Of a stretch of DNA of 64,000 nucleotides, positions 3,594 through 7,862 are shown piece after piece (within the stretch, counting starts at the first letter, position 1; each line of letters opens with the position of its first letter). A program made the position numbers and the translations under genes. Source of the DNA: an uncultured Eubacteriales bacterium (lineage in GTDB: Bacteria > Bacillota > Clostridia > Peptostreptococcales > Anaerovoracaceae); contig CADABZ010000009.1 of the NCBI GenBank assembly GCA_902786355.1, forward strand, positions 19,498-83,497, written 5' to 3'. The notes beneath the pieces are model-generated. The model saw only the letters and a program-made list of their open reading frames with translations. It made no database searches and had not been told where the DNA came from.

Positions 3594-3787
3594 GGTTATC
3601 ATACCTCCTTCCCAGTTGTTGTATAAGTGATTCCCCTAAGGGAAATAGGTCAATTATTTATCCATACTGGTCATATTAAGACTATTATGTTAAGAATTCA
3701 ATGTTTTTCAGCAAAAAGCACTGAAATTTTGTGTTTTTTGAACACCGGGCCAGTTATCGTTCGGAATATTCCCCGGTGTTCACGCCT

Positions 3788-4585
3788 TTACATTGAATGC
3801 TTCTTCTCCATGATCTTATCTACTGCATGTATGACCGAATGCCTGAATCCTGTCTCTTCAAGCGCGCTTATGCCTACAATGGTCGTGCCGCCCGGCGAGC
3901 ACACGGCATCCTTGAGTTCGCCCGGATGCTTTCCGCTCTCCATCATATATTTTGCAGTTCCTATGAGCATCTGAGGAACGATGACATAAGCCTGGGCACG
4001 GCTCATTCCGTGCTTTACAAGCCCGTCAGCAAGCGCTTCTATGAATACATCTGCAAAAGCAGGTGCGCAGCCTGCGCCTGTCCCGCCGAGGGAGAGAAGA
4101 TCCGGACTGAAGTATTCTATCTTCGCTATCTGCCCGAAAATACCTTCGAACAGTTTCAGCTGCTCCGCAGTCAGCGAGTGCTTCGATTCAGCCACTATGA
4201 TACCTTCGCCTACTGCGACAGGTGTGTTAGGTATCGTGCTGATATGATTGAATCCCTCGCCGAGATAGCTGACATATCTTTCGTAATCAATGCCTGCAGC
4301 GATAGAGATCACAGGTTTTCCCTTAAGCACGCCGGCAATTGCTGTAACAACATCCCTGACCTGCTCCGGCAGAACACCTATCACGATCATATCGGCTGAG
4401 CGGGCAGCTTCCGCCGCATCTGAGCAGGCGTTGATACCGCGATCAGCGCATTTTGCCTGCAGCTTCACTGTATCCCTTGCACATGCATATATATCCGATG
4501 GAGCAATGGCCCCGCTGAGCAGCAGCCCGTCGCAGATCGCTCCTGCCATATTGCCAAAACCTATAAAACCAATTCTCGTACTCAT
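3788..4585 (-). CDS. proC: Pyrroline-5-carboxylate reductase
   Basis: It has an N-terminal Rossmann motif IGFIGFGNMAG and the C-terminal P5CR signature SPGGTT (AVCSPGGTTIVGISALEE). The 265 aa length fits. Confidence 0.9.
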   Translation of the reverse strand: MSTRIGFIGFGNMAGAICDGLLLSGAIAPSDIYACARDTVKLQAKCADRGINACSDAAEAARSADMIVIGVLPEQVRDVVTAIAGVLKGKPVISIAAGIDYERYVSYLGEGFNHISTIPNTPVAVGEGIIVAESKHSLTAEQLKLFEGIFGQIAKIEYFSPDLLSLGGTGAGCAPAFADVFIEALADGLVKHGMSRAQAYVIVPQMLIGTAKYMMESGKHPGELKDAVCSPGGTTIVGISALEETGFRHSVIHAVDKIMEKKHSM

Positions 4586-4746
4586 TCCTGCCCCGATCCT
4601 TTCTCAGCAAACTCATCATGCATATATAGATACATGTTATTTTAACACATGGGAGAGCGCGCCGTTTACACTGGTTTAATGCTGCGCCGCCCGCCTGCAG
4701 ATGTTTGTATGGTGTAATCAAGACGGATCTTTTGTATAATGTCTGC

Positions 4747-5400
4747 ATGAGAATTATTATGAGAAAAGCAGTAAATATATGTATAATCATCGCTGTGGCG
4801 GGGTCATGGCTAGCTATGGCGCTGTACGGGCAGGGCACTCTGGCCGAGAACGGATTCGGAAATCTGAAATACTTCACAGTCCTTTCAAATCTGCTGGAGG
4901 GAGCCGCATCAGTGATCTGGCTTGTTATGTCAGGCAGGGATGAAAGTGCTAAAATAAAAGCTGAACGGCTCAAATACGTCGCAGCTTCCGCGGTGATGCT
5001 CACTTTCACTGTCGTGATGGGATTTCTCGGACCGCTGTACGGATACGGCTCGATGTTCACAGGGGCAAACCTGTTTTTTCATCTGATCATTCCTCTGGTG
5101 GCTGCAGCAGAAGTGATATTCCTCTCGGATGCAGAGTATACAGCATCAGACAATGCGCTGACGGTGATCCCGCCGCTTGTGTATGGGACGGTATATCTTC
5201 TCAATAATATCGTGAACGGGATCGGCGAGTGGCCAGATACCAATGACTGGTATACTTTTCTCGCGTGGGGGTACCCGGCAGGCATCGGAATCTTTGCGGT
5301 GATATGCGCTGTCACATGGCTGCTCGGACTTCTCATGCGAAAACTACAGATCAAAATACCGGCAAAGCATCGGCAGGAACCGGACCGGTGCAGGAGATAA
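4747..5400 (+). CDS. Integral membrane protein (6 TM, possibly Pr6Pr-like)
   Basis: Hydrophobic helices run throughout and an FTVLSNLLEG motif is present. The track start at 4705 is TTG; the first ATGs are at 4747 and 4759 and no clear SD was seen. The family assignment is tentative. Confidence 0.5.
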   Translation: MRIIMRKAVNICIIIAVAGSWLAMALYGQGTLAENGFGNLKYFTVLSNLLEGAASVIWLVMSGRDESAKIKAERLKYVAASAVMLTFTVVMGFLGPLYGYGSMFTGANLFFHLIIPLVAAAEVIFLSDAEYTASDNALTVIPPLVYGTVYLLNNIVNGIGEWPDTNDWYTFLAWGYPAGIGIFAVICAVTWLLGLLMRKLQIKIPAKHRQEPDRCRR

Positions 5401-5405
5401 TAGAC

Positions 5406-5657
5406 ATGACAGATTATATAACTATAGGCGGCAGCAGTTATCCGATCAGGGAACTGAGGCTGGAAGAATATGAGGTAGATGTCAGGGTATCCTGCGAATC
5501 TCTCGAAGCAGTCATCTTTGATGAAGAGAATGAGTACACTTCAAGAGAGGCGCAGCTCCTCGATGAGATCATATTCTTCTATGTCCCGGATGATATGATC
5601 GAAGATGCGTCCGATGAGGAGCTGGAGCAGTACATCACAGACAACCTTGAATGGTGA
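5406..5657 (+). CDS. Small acidic hypothetical protein (83 aa)
   Basis: The ATG at 5406 follows AGGAG by about 9 nt and sits 5 nt after the upstream stop. The upstream part of track ORF 5265-5657 overlaps the membrane-protein gene and is ignored. Confidence 0.5.
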   Translation: MTDYITIGGSSYPIRELRLEEYEVDVRVSCESLEAVIFDEENEYTSREAQLLDEIIFFYVPDDMIEDASDEELEQYITDNLEW

Positions 5658-5696: not shown

Positions 5697-6407
5697 ATGA
5701 CAGAATCACAGTACACATATTTAAACAGAAACGAAAAGTGCATCAGCTGTAGCAGGATGTGCATGACAAGCCTGACTGCTCTGTCGAGCGTCGATGAAGC
5801 GGGATGGAAGCGCGTCATGGAGTCTGCTGTGCGCAAAAAATACCGCAAGGGCAGCTATCTGTTCAGAGAAGACGATCCGTGCGACGGGATCTATCTGATC
5901 CTGTCGGGGAAGATCAAGCTGCGGACATATGACGCCGAAGGCAGAGAGGAGATCGCAGGCATATTCTGGTTCGGCGAGGTCATATGGGAAGGCATCTTCA
6001 TCGACAAAAGCACCTTCCCGTATGATGCAGTCTGCCTTGACACGACTGACTGCTGCATGATACCGAGGGCAGAGCTTGAGTCCTTCATGGAAGAGCCAAA
6101 AGTCGCACTCAAGGTTATAAAGCTTCTGAGCCGCAAGCTGCACGCCGCCAACGAGAGAGTGCTGCTCCTGACGACCGAGGATCCCAAGGCGAGACTTGCG
6201 GGATTCCTGCTCAGGCAGAGCAAGTATTCAGAGTCAGATACTTTTACGATGAGACTCGAGGAAATCTCGGCGAGCATTCATCTCAGGCCGGAGACAGTAA
6301 GCCGCAAGATCAGAGAGCTGGAGAGAGAAGGCATCATCAGGAAGACCGGTCAGAGCACCATCAGGATCGTGGATTTTCAGCAGCTCAGAGACACGTTCAA
6401 AAGCTAG
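5697..6407 (+). CDS. Crp/Fnr-family transcriptional regulator with N-terminal Cys cluster (FNR-like)
   Basis: It has a cNMP-binding-type beta-roll (YLFREDDPCDGIYLILSGKIKL) and a C-terminal HTH (LEEISASIHLRPETVSRKIRELEREGII). An N-terminal CISCSRMC motif (C-x2-C-x3-C) recalls the FNR Fe-S sensory cluster. Confidence 0.85.
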   Translation: MTESQYTYLNRNEKCISCSRMCMTSLTALSSVDEAGWKRVMESAVRKKYRKGSYLFREDDPCDGIYLILSGKIKLRTYDAEGREEIAGIFWFGEVIWEGIFIDKSTFPYDAVCLDTTDCCMIPRAELESFMEEPKVALKVIKLLSRKLHAANERVLLLTTEDPKARLAGFLLRQSKYSESDTFTMRLEEISASIHLRPETVSRKIRELEREGIIRKTGQSTIRIVDFQQLRDTFKS

Positions 6408-6504
6408 AAATATGTTCTTCCGAAGCAGATCGTGTGCGTGAAAAAAGCTCTTCCCGGAGGCCGCCAATGCATTAAAAAAATATTTAATAAAAAATTACAA
6501 AAAC

Positions 6505-6518
6505 TTGATTATAATCAA
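6505..6518 (+). promoter_or_regulatory. Perfect FNR/CRP-family box TTGAT-N4-ATCAA
   Basis: The sequence TTGATtataATCAA was read directly at 6505-6518, in an AT-rich intergenic region 98 nt after the Crp/Fnr gene stop. Confidence 0.7.
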
Positions 6519-6537
6519 TTTTCTTATATATCGGCGG

Positions 6538-6546
6538 TGTTATATT
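6538..6546 (+). promoter_or_regulatory. Extended -10 element (TGtTATATT); predicted +1 near 6553
   Basis: TG is at 6538-6539 and TATATT at 6541-6546. With +1 about 7 nt downstream, the FNR-box centre (6511.5) falls at -41.5, which is class II geometry. Confidence 0.55.
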
Positions 6547-6622
6547 TCCCTCTGTCAGAAAGACAGCAACTAAACTGATCGGTGACGGTCAGTAATATAT
6601 ATACGAAGGGAGATATACAGAA

Positions 6623-6727
6623 ATGATGGAGCTTATGATCGGAGCAGCAGTTCTCGTACCGTCGCTTTACTGGACCGCAGCTGTAGCAGCATCTGTAAAA
6701 GACGCTGTTGAGGAAGCAAACGACTAG
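6623..6727 (+). CDS. 34-aa hydrophobic/acidic micropeptide (MMELMIGAAVLVPSLYWTAAVAASVKDAVEEAND)
   Basis: This ORF is not in the ORF track because it is under 60 aa. The SD AAGGGAGA lies 9 nt upstream of the ATG at 6623 and the stop is TAG at 6725-6727. It has one predicted TM-like segment plus an acidic tail, and a terminator follows. Confidence 0.5.
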   Translation: MMELMIGAAVLVPSLYWTAAVAASVKDAVEEAND

Positions 6728-6767
6728 TACGATTTACATAGATGCAGGGTGAAAGAACCCCGGGTAC

Positions 6768-6798
6768 CGGCAGACCAGACTGCCGTTTTTTATTTTTT
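6768..6798 (+). terminator. Weak rho-independent terminator
   Basis: CGGCA (6768-6772) pairs with TGCCG (6781-6785), followed by TTTTTTATTTTTT. Confidence 0.5.
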
Positions 6799-6914
6799 GA
6801 AAAAAGCATGCCGCCGCTGACCGGCCTGAGTGATTCAGAGGTTGAGATATGGTATCATTTACATGATAGTTGATGTCGTCACAAGGGGTTGCCCGGAAAG
6901 AGAGGATGGTCATT

Positions 6915-7862
6915 ATGCTTCATGAAATAAGTTTTGACTCGTACAACAAGAGAGACAGAGTATACGGATGGGTATATGTTCCTGCTGCAGCGCCTGTAGG
7001 AATAATCCAGCTGATCCACGGATTTGGAGAACATTCGCGCAGATACCTGCATATGATAGTCAAATTCATGGACGCAGGCTTTATTGTAGCCGCTGATGAT
7101 CACGTAGGCCACGGCAAGACAGCTATGGAGAACAACTGCTGGGGCGACTGGGGCAGCATGGGTGTTCATACCATGATGGAGGATGAGCATACTCTGACAA
7201 AGCTTGTCAAAGAGATGTATCCGGATCTTCCGTATTTTATGTTCGGACACAGCATGGGCTCATTCATAGCAAGAGACTATATCACCAAGTACGGCAATGA
7301 GCTTGATGGTGTGACTCTGTGCGGAACTTCGGGAGAGTTCCCTGGACTCGATAACAGTATAGACTACCTTAAGAAGCTTGTAGATGCGGGCAAGGGTCAG
7401 GAATCCGATCCTGATGCCGGAGCAGTGATGATGGGCTGGATGTTCGGCCGCTGCGAAGAAGGCGTCAAGCTTGGAAATGAATGGATCTGCCATGATGAAT
7501 TCGTCCAGAGAGACCATGCAGAGGATCCGTTCGATGCATTCACCAGGCCGACCAGCAACAGATCCTTCCTCGACTTTGCGGAGATGATCAAAGTGATCAC
7601 AGGACCGGAATGGGCTGCCAAAGTCCCTGTAGAGCTTCCGATCTACAATATCGCCGGCGATCAGGATCCTGTTGGTCAGTACGGTGCAGGTGTATATCAG
7701 GTATCCAACTGGCTGATCGATGCAGGATGTGATGTAGAGACGATGCTGTACTCAGGATACCGCCATGAGATACACAATTACGATGATCTCAAGGACGATG
7801 TTGAAGAGGGTATTATAGACTTCTTCTACAGATGCATAATAGATGTCGAGATCGATTTCTAG
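6915..7862 (+). CDS. Alpha/beta hydrolase (lysophospholipase / monoacylglycerol-lipase-like)
   Basis: It has the HGFGEHSRRY oxyanion region and the nucleophile elbow GHSMGS. The start is uncertain: TTG 6870 (track), ATG 6906, or ATG 6915, with AGAGGA 8 nt upstream of 6915. Confidence 0.8.
   Translation: MLHEISFDSYNKRDRVYGWVYVPAAAPVGIIQLIHGFGEHSRRYLHMIVKFMDAGFIVAADDHVGHGKTAMENNCWGDWGSMGVHTMMEDEHTLTKLVKEMYPDLPYFMFGHSMGSFIARDYITKYGNELDGVTLCGTSGEFPGLDNSIDYLKKLVDAGKGQESDPDAGAVMMGWMFGRCEEGVKLGNEWICHDEFVQRDHAEDPFDAFTRPTSNRSFLDFAEMIKVITGPEWAAKVPVELPIYNIAGDQDPVGQYGAGVYQVSNWLIDAGCDVETMLYSGYRHEIHNYDDLKDDVEEGIIDFFYRCIIDVEIDF

Follow-up and report, generated by a model that had tools for sequence, protein, structure and literature searches.

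We describe here a micropeptide gene, its promoter and a linked regulator gene in a 64,000-nucleotide stretch of DNA (hereafter the window) from an uncultured bacterium of the Anaerovoracaceae; the window lies on contig C9 of a 63-contig, 2.5-Mb assembly that is 95% complete (G000). On the forward strand, a 34-codon open reading frame (ORF) at 6623-6727, with the product MMELMIGAAVLVPSLYWTAAVAASVKDAVEEAND, stands downstream of a gene for a 236-residue FNR-like regulator of the Crp/Fnr family (5697-6407). We consider it probable, at roughly 0.7, that the ORF is a genuine micropeptide gene and that the adjacent regulator activates it from an FNR-type class II promoter; the further proposal that the peptide acts as a membrane accessory or modulator is more tentative, at a little under even odds. 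A preliminary description of the window had put forward a class II FNR-type promoter of the adjacent regulator driving a real hydrophobic micropeptide, and, as far as sequence comparison can tell, this is supported by the conservation of the elements, the selection acting on the reading frame, the spacing within the promoter and the linkage of the two genes.

The promoter is centred on a box, TTGATtataATCAA, at 6505-6518, which matches TTGAT-N4-ATCAA and is a perfect palindrome throughout (TTGATTATAATCAA). An extended -10 element, TGtTATATT, lies on the forward strand at 6538-6546, with the hexamer TATATT at 6541-6546. When this hexamer is taken as -12 to -7, the predicted transcription start falls at 6553, with an uncertainty of 1-2 nt, and the box centre (6511.5) at -41.5. 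The predicted 5′ leader (6553-6622, forward strand) includes a Shine-Dalgarno sequence (SD), GAAGGGAG, at 6605-6612, which ends 10 nt upstream of the ATG at 6623. Downstream of the ORF and on the same strand is an intrinsic terminator (6768-6798), in which a hairpin with a CGGCAG/CTGCCG stem and a 6-nt loop (6768-6785) is followed by the run T6AT6, while an A/T-rich tract immediately 5′ of the box (6470-6504, forward strand) could act as an UP-like element. The box, the extended -10 element, the good SD, the ORF and the terminator were thus all found where the preliminary description had placed them.

On its single occurrence in the window the box is weak evidence. The 64 kb contain no other exact match, matches with at most one mismatch number three against 4.1 expected and so show no enrichment, and the palindrome contains TATAAT on both strands and might itself be a -10 element. 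The whole genome holds four exact boxes, and the other three lie either in a riboswitch-terminator hairpin or within coding sequence; the combination of an exact box with an extended -10 element 18-20 nt away occurs at a single site genome-wide, which is the micropeptide promoter. The hairpin copy, an exact TTGATCTTGATCAA at C6:59176-59189 within the stem AATGGCC...GGCCATT, closes a riboswitch-like leader that precedes a gene similar to those for ECF-transporter S components, and is a chance look-alike of an FNR box. What lifts the box of the window beyond chance is that both it and its geometry are conserved in every related locus.

The related loci came from a regulator scan of genome contigs, a peptide scan of metagenome contigs, a profile search, context look-ups and a family-wide six-frame search, which yielded locus L037. 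The 23 same-genus genomes first sampled contained one orthologue of the regulator (in G001, 79% identity), and 3′ of it we found an unchanged box followed by a 33-codon ORF encoding MMDLVVGTAVLVPSLYWSAIVAASVKAVAKKDN. In total, nine distinct homologues of the peptide were obtained, from Anaerovoracaceae/Mogibacterium-type metagenome-assembled genomes (MAGs) and from metagenomes. All nine have an intact frame that is 33-34 codons long, starts with ATG and is preceded by an SD. Diverged pairs, compared over 26 gap-free codons, differ at proportions of 0.5-0.7 per synonymous site (pS) and 0.10-0.29 per non-synonymous site (pN), with ratios of non-synonymous to synonymous change (dN/dS) of 0.09-0.46 and near-saturated synonymous sites, and the variable alignment columns number 15, 6 and 21 at codon positions 1, 2 and 3, respectively. 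The low dN/dS at near-saturated synonymous sites indicates that the ORF is translated, and the synonymous divergence of 0.5-0.7 indicates that the related loci are not assembly copies of one sequence. The preliminary description had named the conservation of the frame and the balance of synonymous and non-synonymous change as the checks to make, and both come out in favour of the gene: relatives carry no frame-destroying changes, and synonymous change is clearly in excess. Judged by this comparison, the micropeptide gene is real and coding.

The peptide family is rare: a sample of 400 genomes from the order contained 1 carrier and a sample of 400 from the family contained 2-3, and both cassette and peptide were absent from the plasmid collection searched. 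A profile search of 1.84 billion representative proteins returned matches to this peptide family only. Public protein collections already contain the identical 34-residue product, from 31 contigs, which means that some gene callers do find the ORF; the NCBI record of a Mogibacterium MAG leaves its copy uncalled (L040 as against L039). Two sets of candidates were set aside. A weak peptide match in G591 (PSLYWQAVSASSIK) was judged coincidental, lying as it does inside a protein that appears by look, with no family search run, to be of the SPFH type, and the large proteins P0114, P0116 and P0120, which share the 90% clusters of the peptide, are without the peptide sequence and represent clustering artefacts.

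Conservation of the promoter is as specific as that of the frame. The half-sites of the box are exact in all related loci, including L024 and L025, in which the centre is TTAA and not TATA (TTGATTTAAATCAA); in these two loci TATAAT is lost (TTTAAA) with both half-sites intact, and because the centre changes while the half-sites stay, it is the half-sites, and not the embedded TATAAT, that form the constrained element. An alignment of the nine micropeptide promoters revealed the invariant blocks AAAA-TTGATT..AATCAA-TTTT and TG.TAT..T.C....TG. The second of these includes the extended -10 element, for which TGnTAT..T is invariant among the micropeptide promoters (TGnTATCCT in relatives), and the spacer between box and extended -10 element is exactly 19 nt in nine of nine promoters and unconserved in sequence. 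A spacer of fixed length and free sequence is to be expected where proteins contact two elements that must keep their helical phase. In an alignment of seven promoters, the A/T tract was also retained, with ATAAATAAAAAAATAACTA at the same place in the relatives. The exact TTGAT-N4-ATCAA match and the extended -10 element, both first noted in a single promoter, are thus kept across relatives together with their spacing.

The same geometry extends to the wider family of the regulator. Five further box-bearing promoters have a TAnnnT hexamer at the same offset. In 14 of 14 family promoters, the -10 hexamer begins 29.5 bp from the centre of the box, in keeping with the class II position originally proposed for the window. 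This shared geometry is independent, comparative evidence for TTGAT-N4-ATCAA as the sequence that the clade recognises and for a class II position of its site.

The linkage of regulator and peptide is strict in this in silico comparison. Every peptide locus with upstream DNA has an orthologous Crp/Fnr gene (at least 64% identity) immediately 5′ and on the same strand, so that the adjacency described for the window recurs in each of them, and the order Crp/Fnr gene, box, leader, ORF and terminator is found on one strand. All examined regulators with at least 64% identity carry the peptide gene, whereas those with 59% or less are without it and have, nearby, an exact box with TAnnnT at the same 19+3-nt offset. 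With this same box/-10 geometry, the box precedes sufC-sufB in L042 (regulator identity 59%), a DUF1858-cupin pair in L027 (53%) and a pyruvate-formate-lyase (PFL)-like glycyl radical enzyme in L029 (46%), and in L031 (43%) there are boxes before an activase and before a glycyl radical enzyme. These targets suggest that the regulon of the wider family concerns oxygen-sensitive enzymes and iron-sulfur metabolism. In L042 the box (2587-2600) is identical to that of the window, TTGATTATAATCAA, with TATCAT at the class II offset before the sufC-sufB-like genes, which suggests that part of the regulator clade controls iron-sulfur cluster assembly.

The genes surrounding the cassette vary. The downstream neighbours differ by lineage and include a hydrolase, an xpt-like phosphoribosyltransferase, an ECF sigma/anti-sigma pair, a homoserine dehydrogenase and a rubrerythrin; in the window the neighbour is an alpha/beta hydrolase. 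A glycyl radical enzyme lies upstream in some loci and a protein of about 150 residues in others. A synteny test for insertion was uninformative, the hydrolase orthologues in six same-genus genomes having entirely different neighbours.

In the peptide-carrying genomes G000, G001 and G658, the peptide promoter looks like the only strong target of the regulator, as judged from the distribution of boxes. The single exact box of G001 (a 74%-complete assembly) is the peptide promoter, and of the five in G658 only that of the peptide has promoter geometry, the other four lying apparently in coding sequence, as judged from the open frames of at least 80 aa listed around them. In G000, none of the sites that the regulon search brought up is convincing as a second target: one on C13, with one mismatch, points towards the end of a convergent gene, and the two PFL-like genes of this genome have no upstream box beyond the background rate.

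The preliminary description had assigned the gene at 5697-6407 to the Crp/Fnr family and remarked on an N-terminal Cys cluster, and both statements hold. The product contains the Pfam domains cNMP_binding (PF00027, 8.7e-18) and HTH_Crp_2 (PF13545, 5.9e-14), each above its cut-off, and its AlphaFold2 model, with a predicted local distance difference test score (pLDDT) of 86.5, matches CRP/FNR structures at template modelling (TM) scores of 0.7-0.79, the best fold match in the PDB being holo-FNR (TM 0.73). The N-terminal cysteines are arranged as C15-x2-C18-x3-C22, with a further one at C120; residues 1-30 were modelled at a low pLDDT of 38-65. In a phmmer alignment to Aliivibrio fischeri FNR, C120 (DCCMIP) falls on the cluster-ligand Cys of MVCEIP, which corresponds to FNR C122. 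Across 43 homologues, down to 29% identity, C18, C22 and C120 are at least 90% conserved and C15 is usual. By analogy with FNR, these three N-terminal Cys and Cys120 most likely hold an iron-sulfur cluster that would be labile to oxygen or nitric oxide.

The DNA-binding part also resembles that of FNR. The recognition helix, RPETVSR (residues 197-203), is part of an LRPETVSR segment that is essentially invariant in the 43 homologues, and E199, T200, S202 and R203, which are invariant among them, reproduce the E--SR pattern of FNR. Ser or Pro at the position of CRP Arg180 has been linked with TTGA-type rather than TGTGA-type motifs (Rodionov et al., PMC1274295), and the regulator has Pro at this position, in line with that rule. 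The two other Crp/Fnr paralogues of G000 have different recognition helices, without the ETVSR helix. The regulator probably works like FNR but, judged by its NCBIfam score and its Cys spacing, is not an Fnr orthologue.

The peptide is predicted to form a single continuous helix over residues 2-33 (pLDDT 88.8), with a 22-residue apolar stretch (L4-V25) whose 19-residue Kyte-Doolittle mean of 1.6-1.9 lies above the classical threshold of 1.6; its hydrophobicity on this scale is below that of the control sequences of CydX, YnhF and KdpF. The residues G7, A9, L11, P13, S14, Y16, W17, A19 and A23 are invariant among the homologues, and helical-wheel arithmetic spreads them around the whole helix. 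A helix packed in between others would account for such a distribution better than a generic anchor would. The N-terminal 26 residues are conserved and begin with MME, MMD, MVD or MID, whereas the C-terminal 7-8 residues are hypervariable (DAVEEAND, AVAKKDN, SVAKEMDN, TMIQGEDR, TIADEENK, HFNDDNK and SAINEEDR), with a net charge of the tail between -4 and +1. The helix of the preliminary description is retained as a prediction and may span the membrane, but the acidic tail that it reported is specific to this genome.

Neither Pfam nor NCBIfam has a family for the peptide. JGI/IMG names a 33-residue homologue 'F0F1-type ATP synthase membrane subunit c / V-type ATPase subunit K', a label that we rejected: none of eight peptides matches PF00137, and the peptide profile scores -0.3 bits against the three c/K subunits of G000 itself. 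An RRNPP-type regulator-pheromone cassette was also discarded, the regulator being of the Crp/Fnr type and not a tetratricopeptide repeat protein and the N-terminus of the peptide carrying no positive charge.

Taken as a working model, these observations would fit the following course of events. A regulator dimer would bind TTGAT-N4-ATCAA about 41.5 bp upstream of the predicted start, where a class II site would replace the -35 element, and would activate a short monocistronic transcript made up of the leader, the 34-codon ORF and the terminator. Translation would yield a single-helix, moderately hydrophobic protein of 33-34 residues. The conserved residues around its helix suggest specific helix packing: the helix would insert in the membrane and there assist or modulate a larger membrane protein as an accessory subunit, or else it would pack with copies of itself in a homo-oligomer. 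As to the signal, we lean towards a promoter that would be on in anoxia and off after oxidant exposure over the opposite arrangement, because of the homology to FNR and the glycyl-radical-enzyme targets of the wider family.

Several observations weigh against this model. The Cys spacing, C-x2-C-x3-C, is not the C-x2-C-x5-C of characterised FNRs, and the regulator scores 67 bits against the NCBIfam Fnr model NF008365, for which the cut-off is 228. The suf target in L042 fits activation by the cluster-free form better, leaving the direction of control uncertain, and boxes with two or more mismatches elsewhere in the genome may be further targets. With regard to the membrane, the peptide is only moderately hydrophobic, has a costly central P13-S14 and gives a crude Hessa sum of +2.3 to +3.2, which is less favourable than those of CydX, YnhF and KdpF and similar to those of Fst and TisB. 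Finally, no partner protein was identified for the peptide.

This resemblance to Fst and TisB raises the question of whether the peptide is instead a self-acting, membrane-damaging small toxin of that kind, which would be redox-switched and would induce dormancy or slower growth. In its size, its single helix with an internal proline and its hydrophobicity, the peptide is close to Fst and TisB, which would suit such a toxin, as would the very patchy distribution, with 1 of 400 genomes of the order and 2-3 of 400 of the family, the differing genomic contexts of the cassette and the design of the peptide gene, which is monocistronic, has a strong SD and ends in a terminator of its own. However, no antitoxin partner was seen, inspection of the downstream DNA showing neither a conserved convergent promoter nor a second conserved element. 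A Pfam search at E values up to 10 returned no Fst-type or other toxin match for the peptides, giving one insignificant match to DUF5654 only. Furthermore, the residue-specific conservation around the helix exceeds the need of a generic membrane perturbant, and if the regulator behaves like FNR, the toxin would be made during the normal anoxic growth of a strict anaerobe. Type I toxins such as Fst/Ldr and TisB are thus similar to the peptide in length, in their hydrophobic helix, in the internal proline (Fst) and in being under a stress regulator (TisB under LexA), but differ in that the peptide has no evident antisense or antitoxin RNA element, no Pfam match and a residue-specific pattern of conservation. 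We regard a toxin as unlikely.

A different account can be built on the strict pairing of regulator and peptide and on the peptide gene being the sole strong target in three genomes. Here the two would be a sensor and its effector, sufficient in themselves and transferred together between genomes: the FNR-like iron-sulfur protein would sense oxygen or damage to its cluster, and its single output would be a helix that feeds back on it, for example by membrane sequestration, or yields a hypervariable C-terminal octapeptide as a lineage-specific signal, a scheme that we hold to be improbable; if true, either output would make this an FNR circuit of an undescribed kind. Put more narrowly, the peptide would act on its own regulator, by tethering or modulating it in the manner of MgrB and PhoQ, or, when processed after the conserved AAS-VK, release a lineage-specific signal of 7-8 residues, and conserved N-terminal residues followed by a hypervariable tail are indeed the pattern of a pheromone precursor. 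Against this, the N-terminus is acidic (MME/MMD) and lacks the positively charged n-region of export signals, the loci have no linked processing or export genes, no peptide-binding mode is known for Crp/Fnr proteins, and a variable cytoplasmic tail on a membrane anchor would be a simpler account of the same pattern. This narrower version is accordingly given an even lower standing.

The preliminary description had also offered a regulatory leader or small RNA as an alternative, and this found no support. According to this account, the transcript would be mainly a regulatory RNA of the FnrS kind or an attenuating leader of the downstream gene, and the ORF would be incidental or a leader peptide. 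In enterobacteria, FnrS is a short non-coding monocistronic unit on an FNR box that acts by base pairing, and the unit described here, which runs from promoter to terminator over about 245 nt and follows a class II FNR box, has the same design as FnrS of Escherichia coli. Dual-function RNAs such as AzuCR also exist (PMC8915982). Unlike FnrS, this transcript shows purifying selection on the amino acids that it encodes, with synonymous sites saturated, and no conservation of its untranslated parts: the leader is A-rich, varies between about 40 and 75 nt among relatives and is poorly conserved, as is the 3′ untranslated region, whose length also varies. The region 6300-7000, which contains the leader and transcript, gave no Rfam match, the only signals being sub-threshold noise from small nucleolar RNA families. 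A hairpin-containing leader had been reported, and two small hairpins are present in the window, but they have no counterpart in relatives, and the fold z-scores of the mRNA (-1.6 and -1.3 against shuffled controls) lie within the control range. In every related locus read, a hairpin and T-run lie 3′ of the ORF, and the downstream gene differs by lineage, which argues that the unit is not the leader of any one gene. We therefore consider a primarily regulatory RNA very unlikely. Least credible of all is that the box is a chance palindrome or a -10 element and the ORF spurious: a single exact match of 10 bases, in 64 kb whose intergenic regions are AT-rich, is insignificant alone, and TATAAT occurs on both strands of the palindrome, but box, spacing and ORF stay conserved down to a regulator identity of 64%, L024/L025 keep the half-sites without TATAAT, and dN/dS is well below 1.

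The surroundings of the regulator gene and its relatives yielded several further observations. Directly 5′ of the regulator, positions 4705-5657 of the window encode a 231-residue membrane protein, with a weak sub-threshold match to the Pr6Pr family, and then a very acidic protein of 85 residues without a family (5400-5657); the two may form an operon with the regulator gene. The 85-residue protein is unrelated to a conserved protein of 145-162 residues found at the same place in relatives, which has the motifs GGAWFSTR..., AYTFGTDWFDI and FC.QAD.EALAG and no Pfam family. This larger protein (L006 2462-2950, minus strand; L022 2723-3160; L037 2449-2913, minus strand; L039 3439-3894; L041 247-711) abuts or overlaps the start of the regulator in five related loci, is absent from the window and is probably co-transcribed with the regulator. 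In G001, only the last 43 codons of a glycyl radical enzyme (RVSGFSAYF...) lie 5′ of the regulator (L006 2331-2462, minus strand), whereas the near-identical MAG behind L013 has an intact glycyl radical enzyme of 799 residues (446-2845), a contrast that reflects either a rearrangement or an assembly difference.

Two loci of the wider family also stood out. In L027, an element of about 110 nt (...GCCAAGCGAAAAAACGCGGT...GGCGGAATGTGCCGG...AGTAAAAA...) occurs twice, at about 3690-3800 and about 4030-4140, its copies flanking the FNR box in the 530-nt gap between the 53%-identical regulator and the DUF1858-cupin operon; it may be a structured RNA or a leader. In L029/L030 (3802-6705), a second, divergent Crp/Fnr gene lies beside the 46%-identical regulator and is followed by genes for a ferredoxin, a cupin and a hybrid-cluster protein (Prismane), an HcpR-like arrangement next to the unit of FNR-like regulator and glycyl radical enzyme.

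Compared with known systems, the regulator is similar to FNR of E. coli and A. fischeri in its Crp/Fnr fold, its E--SR helix, its Cys aligned with C122 and its three N-terminal Cys. The promoter resembles FNR class II promoters in having a TTGAT-N4-ATCAA box at the class II distance from the -10 element, and relatives of the regulator are found at pyruvate-formate-lyase-like genes as FNR is at pfl. On the other hand, the regulator is only about 25% identical to FNR, has the C-x2-C-x3-C spacing and belongs to strictly anaerobic Bacillota, and whereas FNR is global, it is apparently local, with one strong target.

On the side of the peptide, YnhF (CydH/CydY) and CydX of the E. coli cytochrome bd are likewise one-helix proteins, 29-37 residues long. 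The gene for YnhF, which is produced when oxygen is low, lies outside the operon of its partner, cydAB (PMC6853902). By analogy, YnhF/CydY would be the closest functional precedent for the favoured model, in which the peptide is an oxygen-regulated accessory helix; there is, however, no sequence similarity to YnhF or CydX, and the peptide is less hydrophobic and has its own adjacent regulator. MgrB, which is activated by PhoP and feeds back on PhoQ, offers a further parallel. So does AzuC, a CRP-controlled protein of 28 aa (PMC8915982). In both cases, as in the model proposed here, a stress or metabolic transcription factor drives the production of a membrane-acting protein with fewer than 50 residues, but MgrB and AzuC are members of large regulons unlinked to their regulators, whereas the peptide gene travels with its regulator as a cassette.

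Both the promoter type and the control of a small membrane protein by a stress regulator are thus well known. What appears to be new is the peptide family, the C-x2-C-x3-C clade of FNR-like regulators of Bacillota and a cassette in which a micropeptide is the only evident strong target of the regulator, and no description of the regulator clade, the peptide or the cassette was found in the searchable literature. The weight of the finding is limited by the rarity of the family, its narrow distribution and the fact that the general principle is established. Nonetheless, annotation systematically misses small proteins, the regulator is known for very few of them, and the in silico case is here close to complete, with a selected protein of 33-34 residues, its promoter, its likely cognate sensor and its terminator, in uncultured anaerobes of the gut, rumen and mouth. 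The cassette could serve as a test case for the use that strict anaerobes make of FNR-type iron-sulfur regulators, in a C-x2-C-x3-C clade that seems uncharacterised, and for the role that a redox-controlled micropeptide may play at the membrane.

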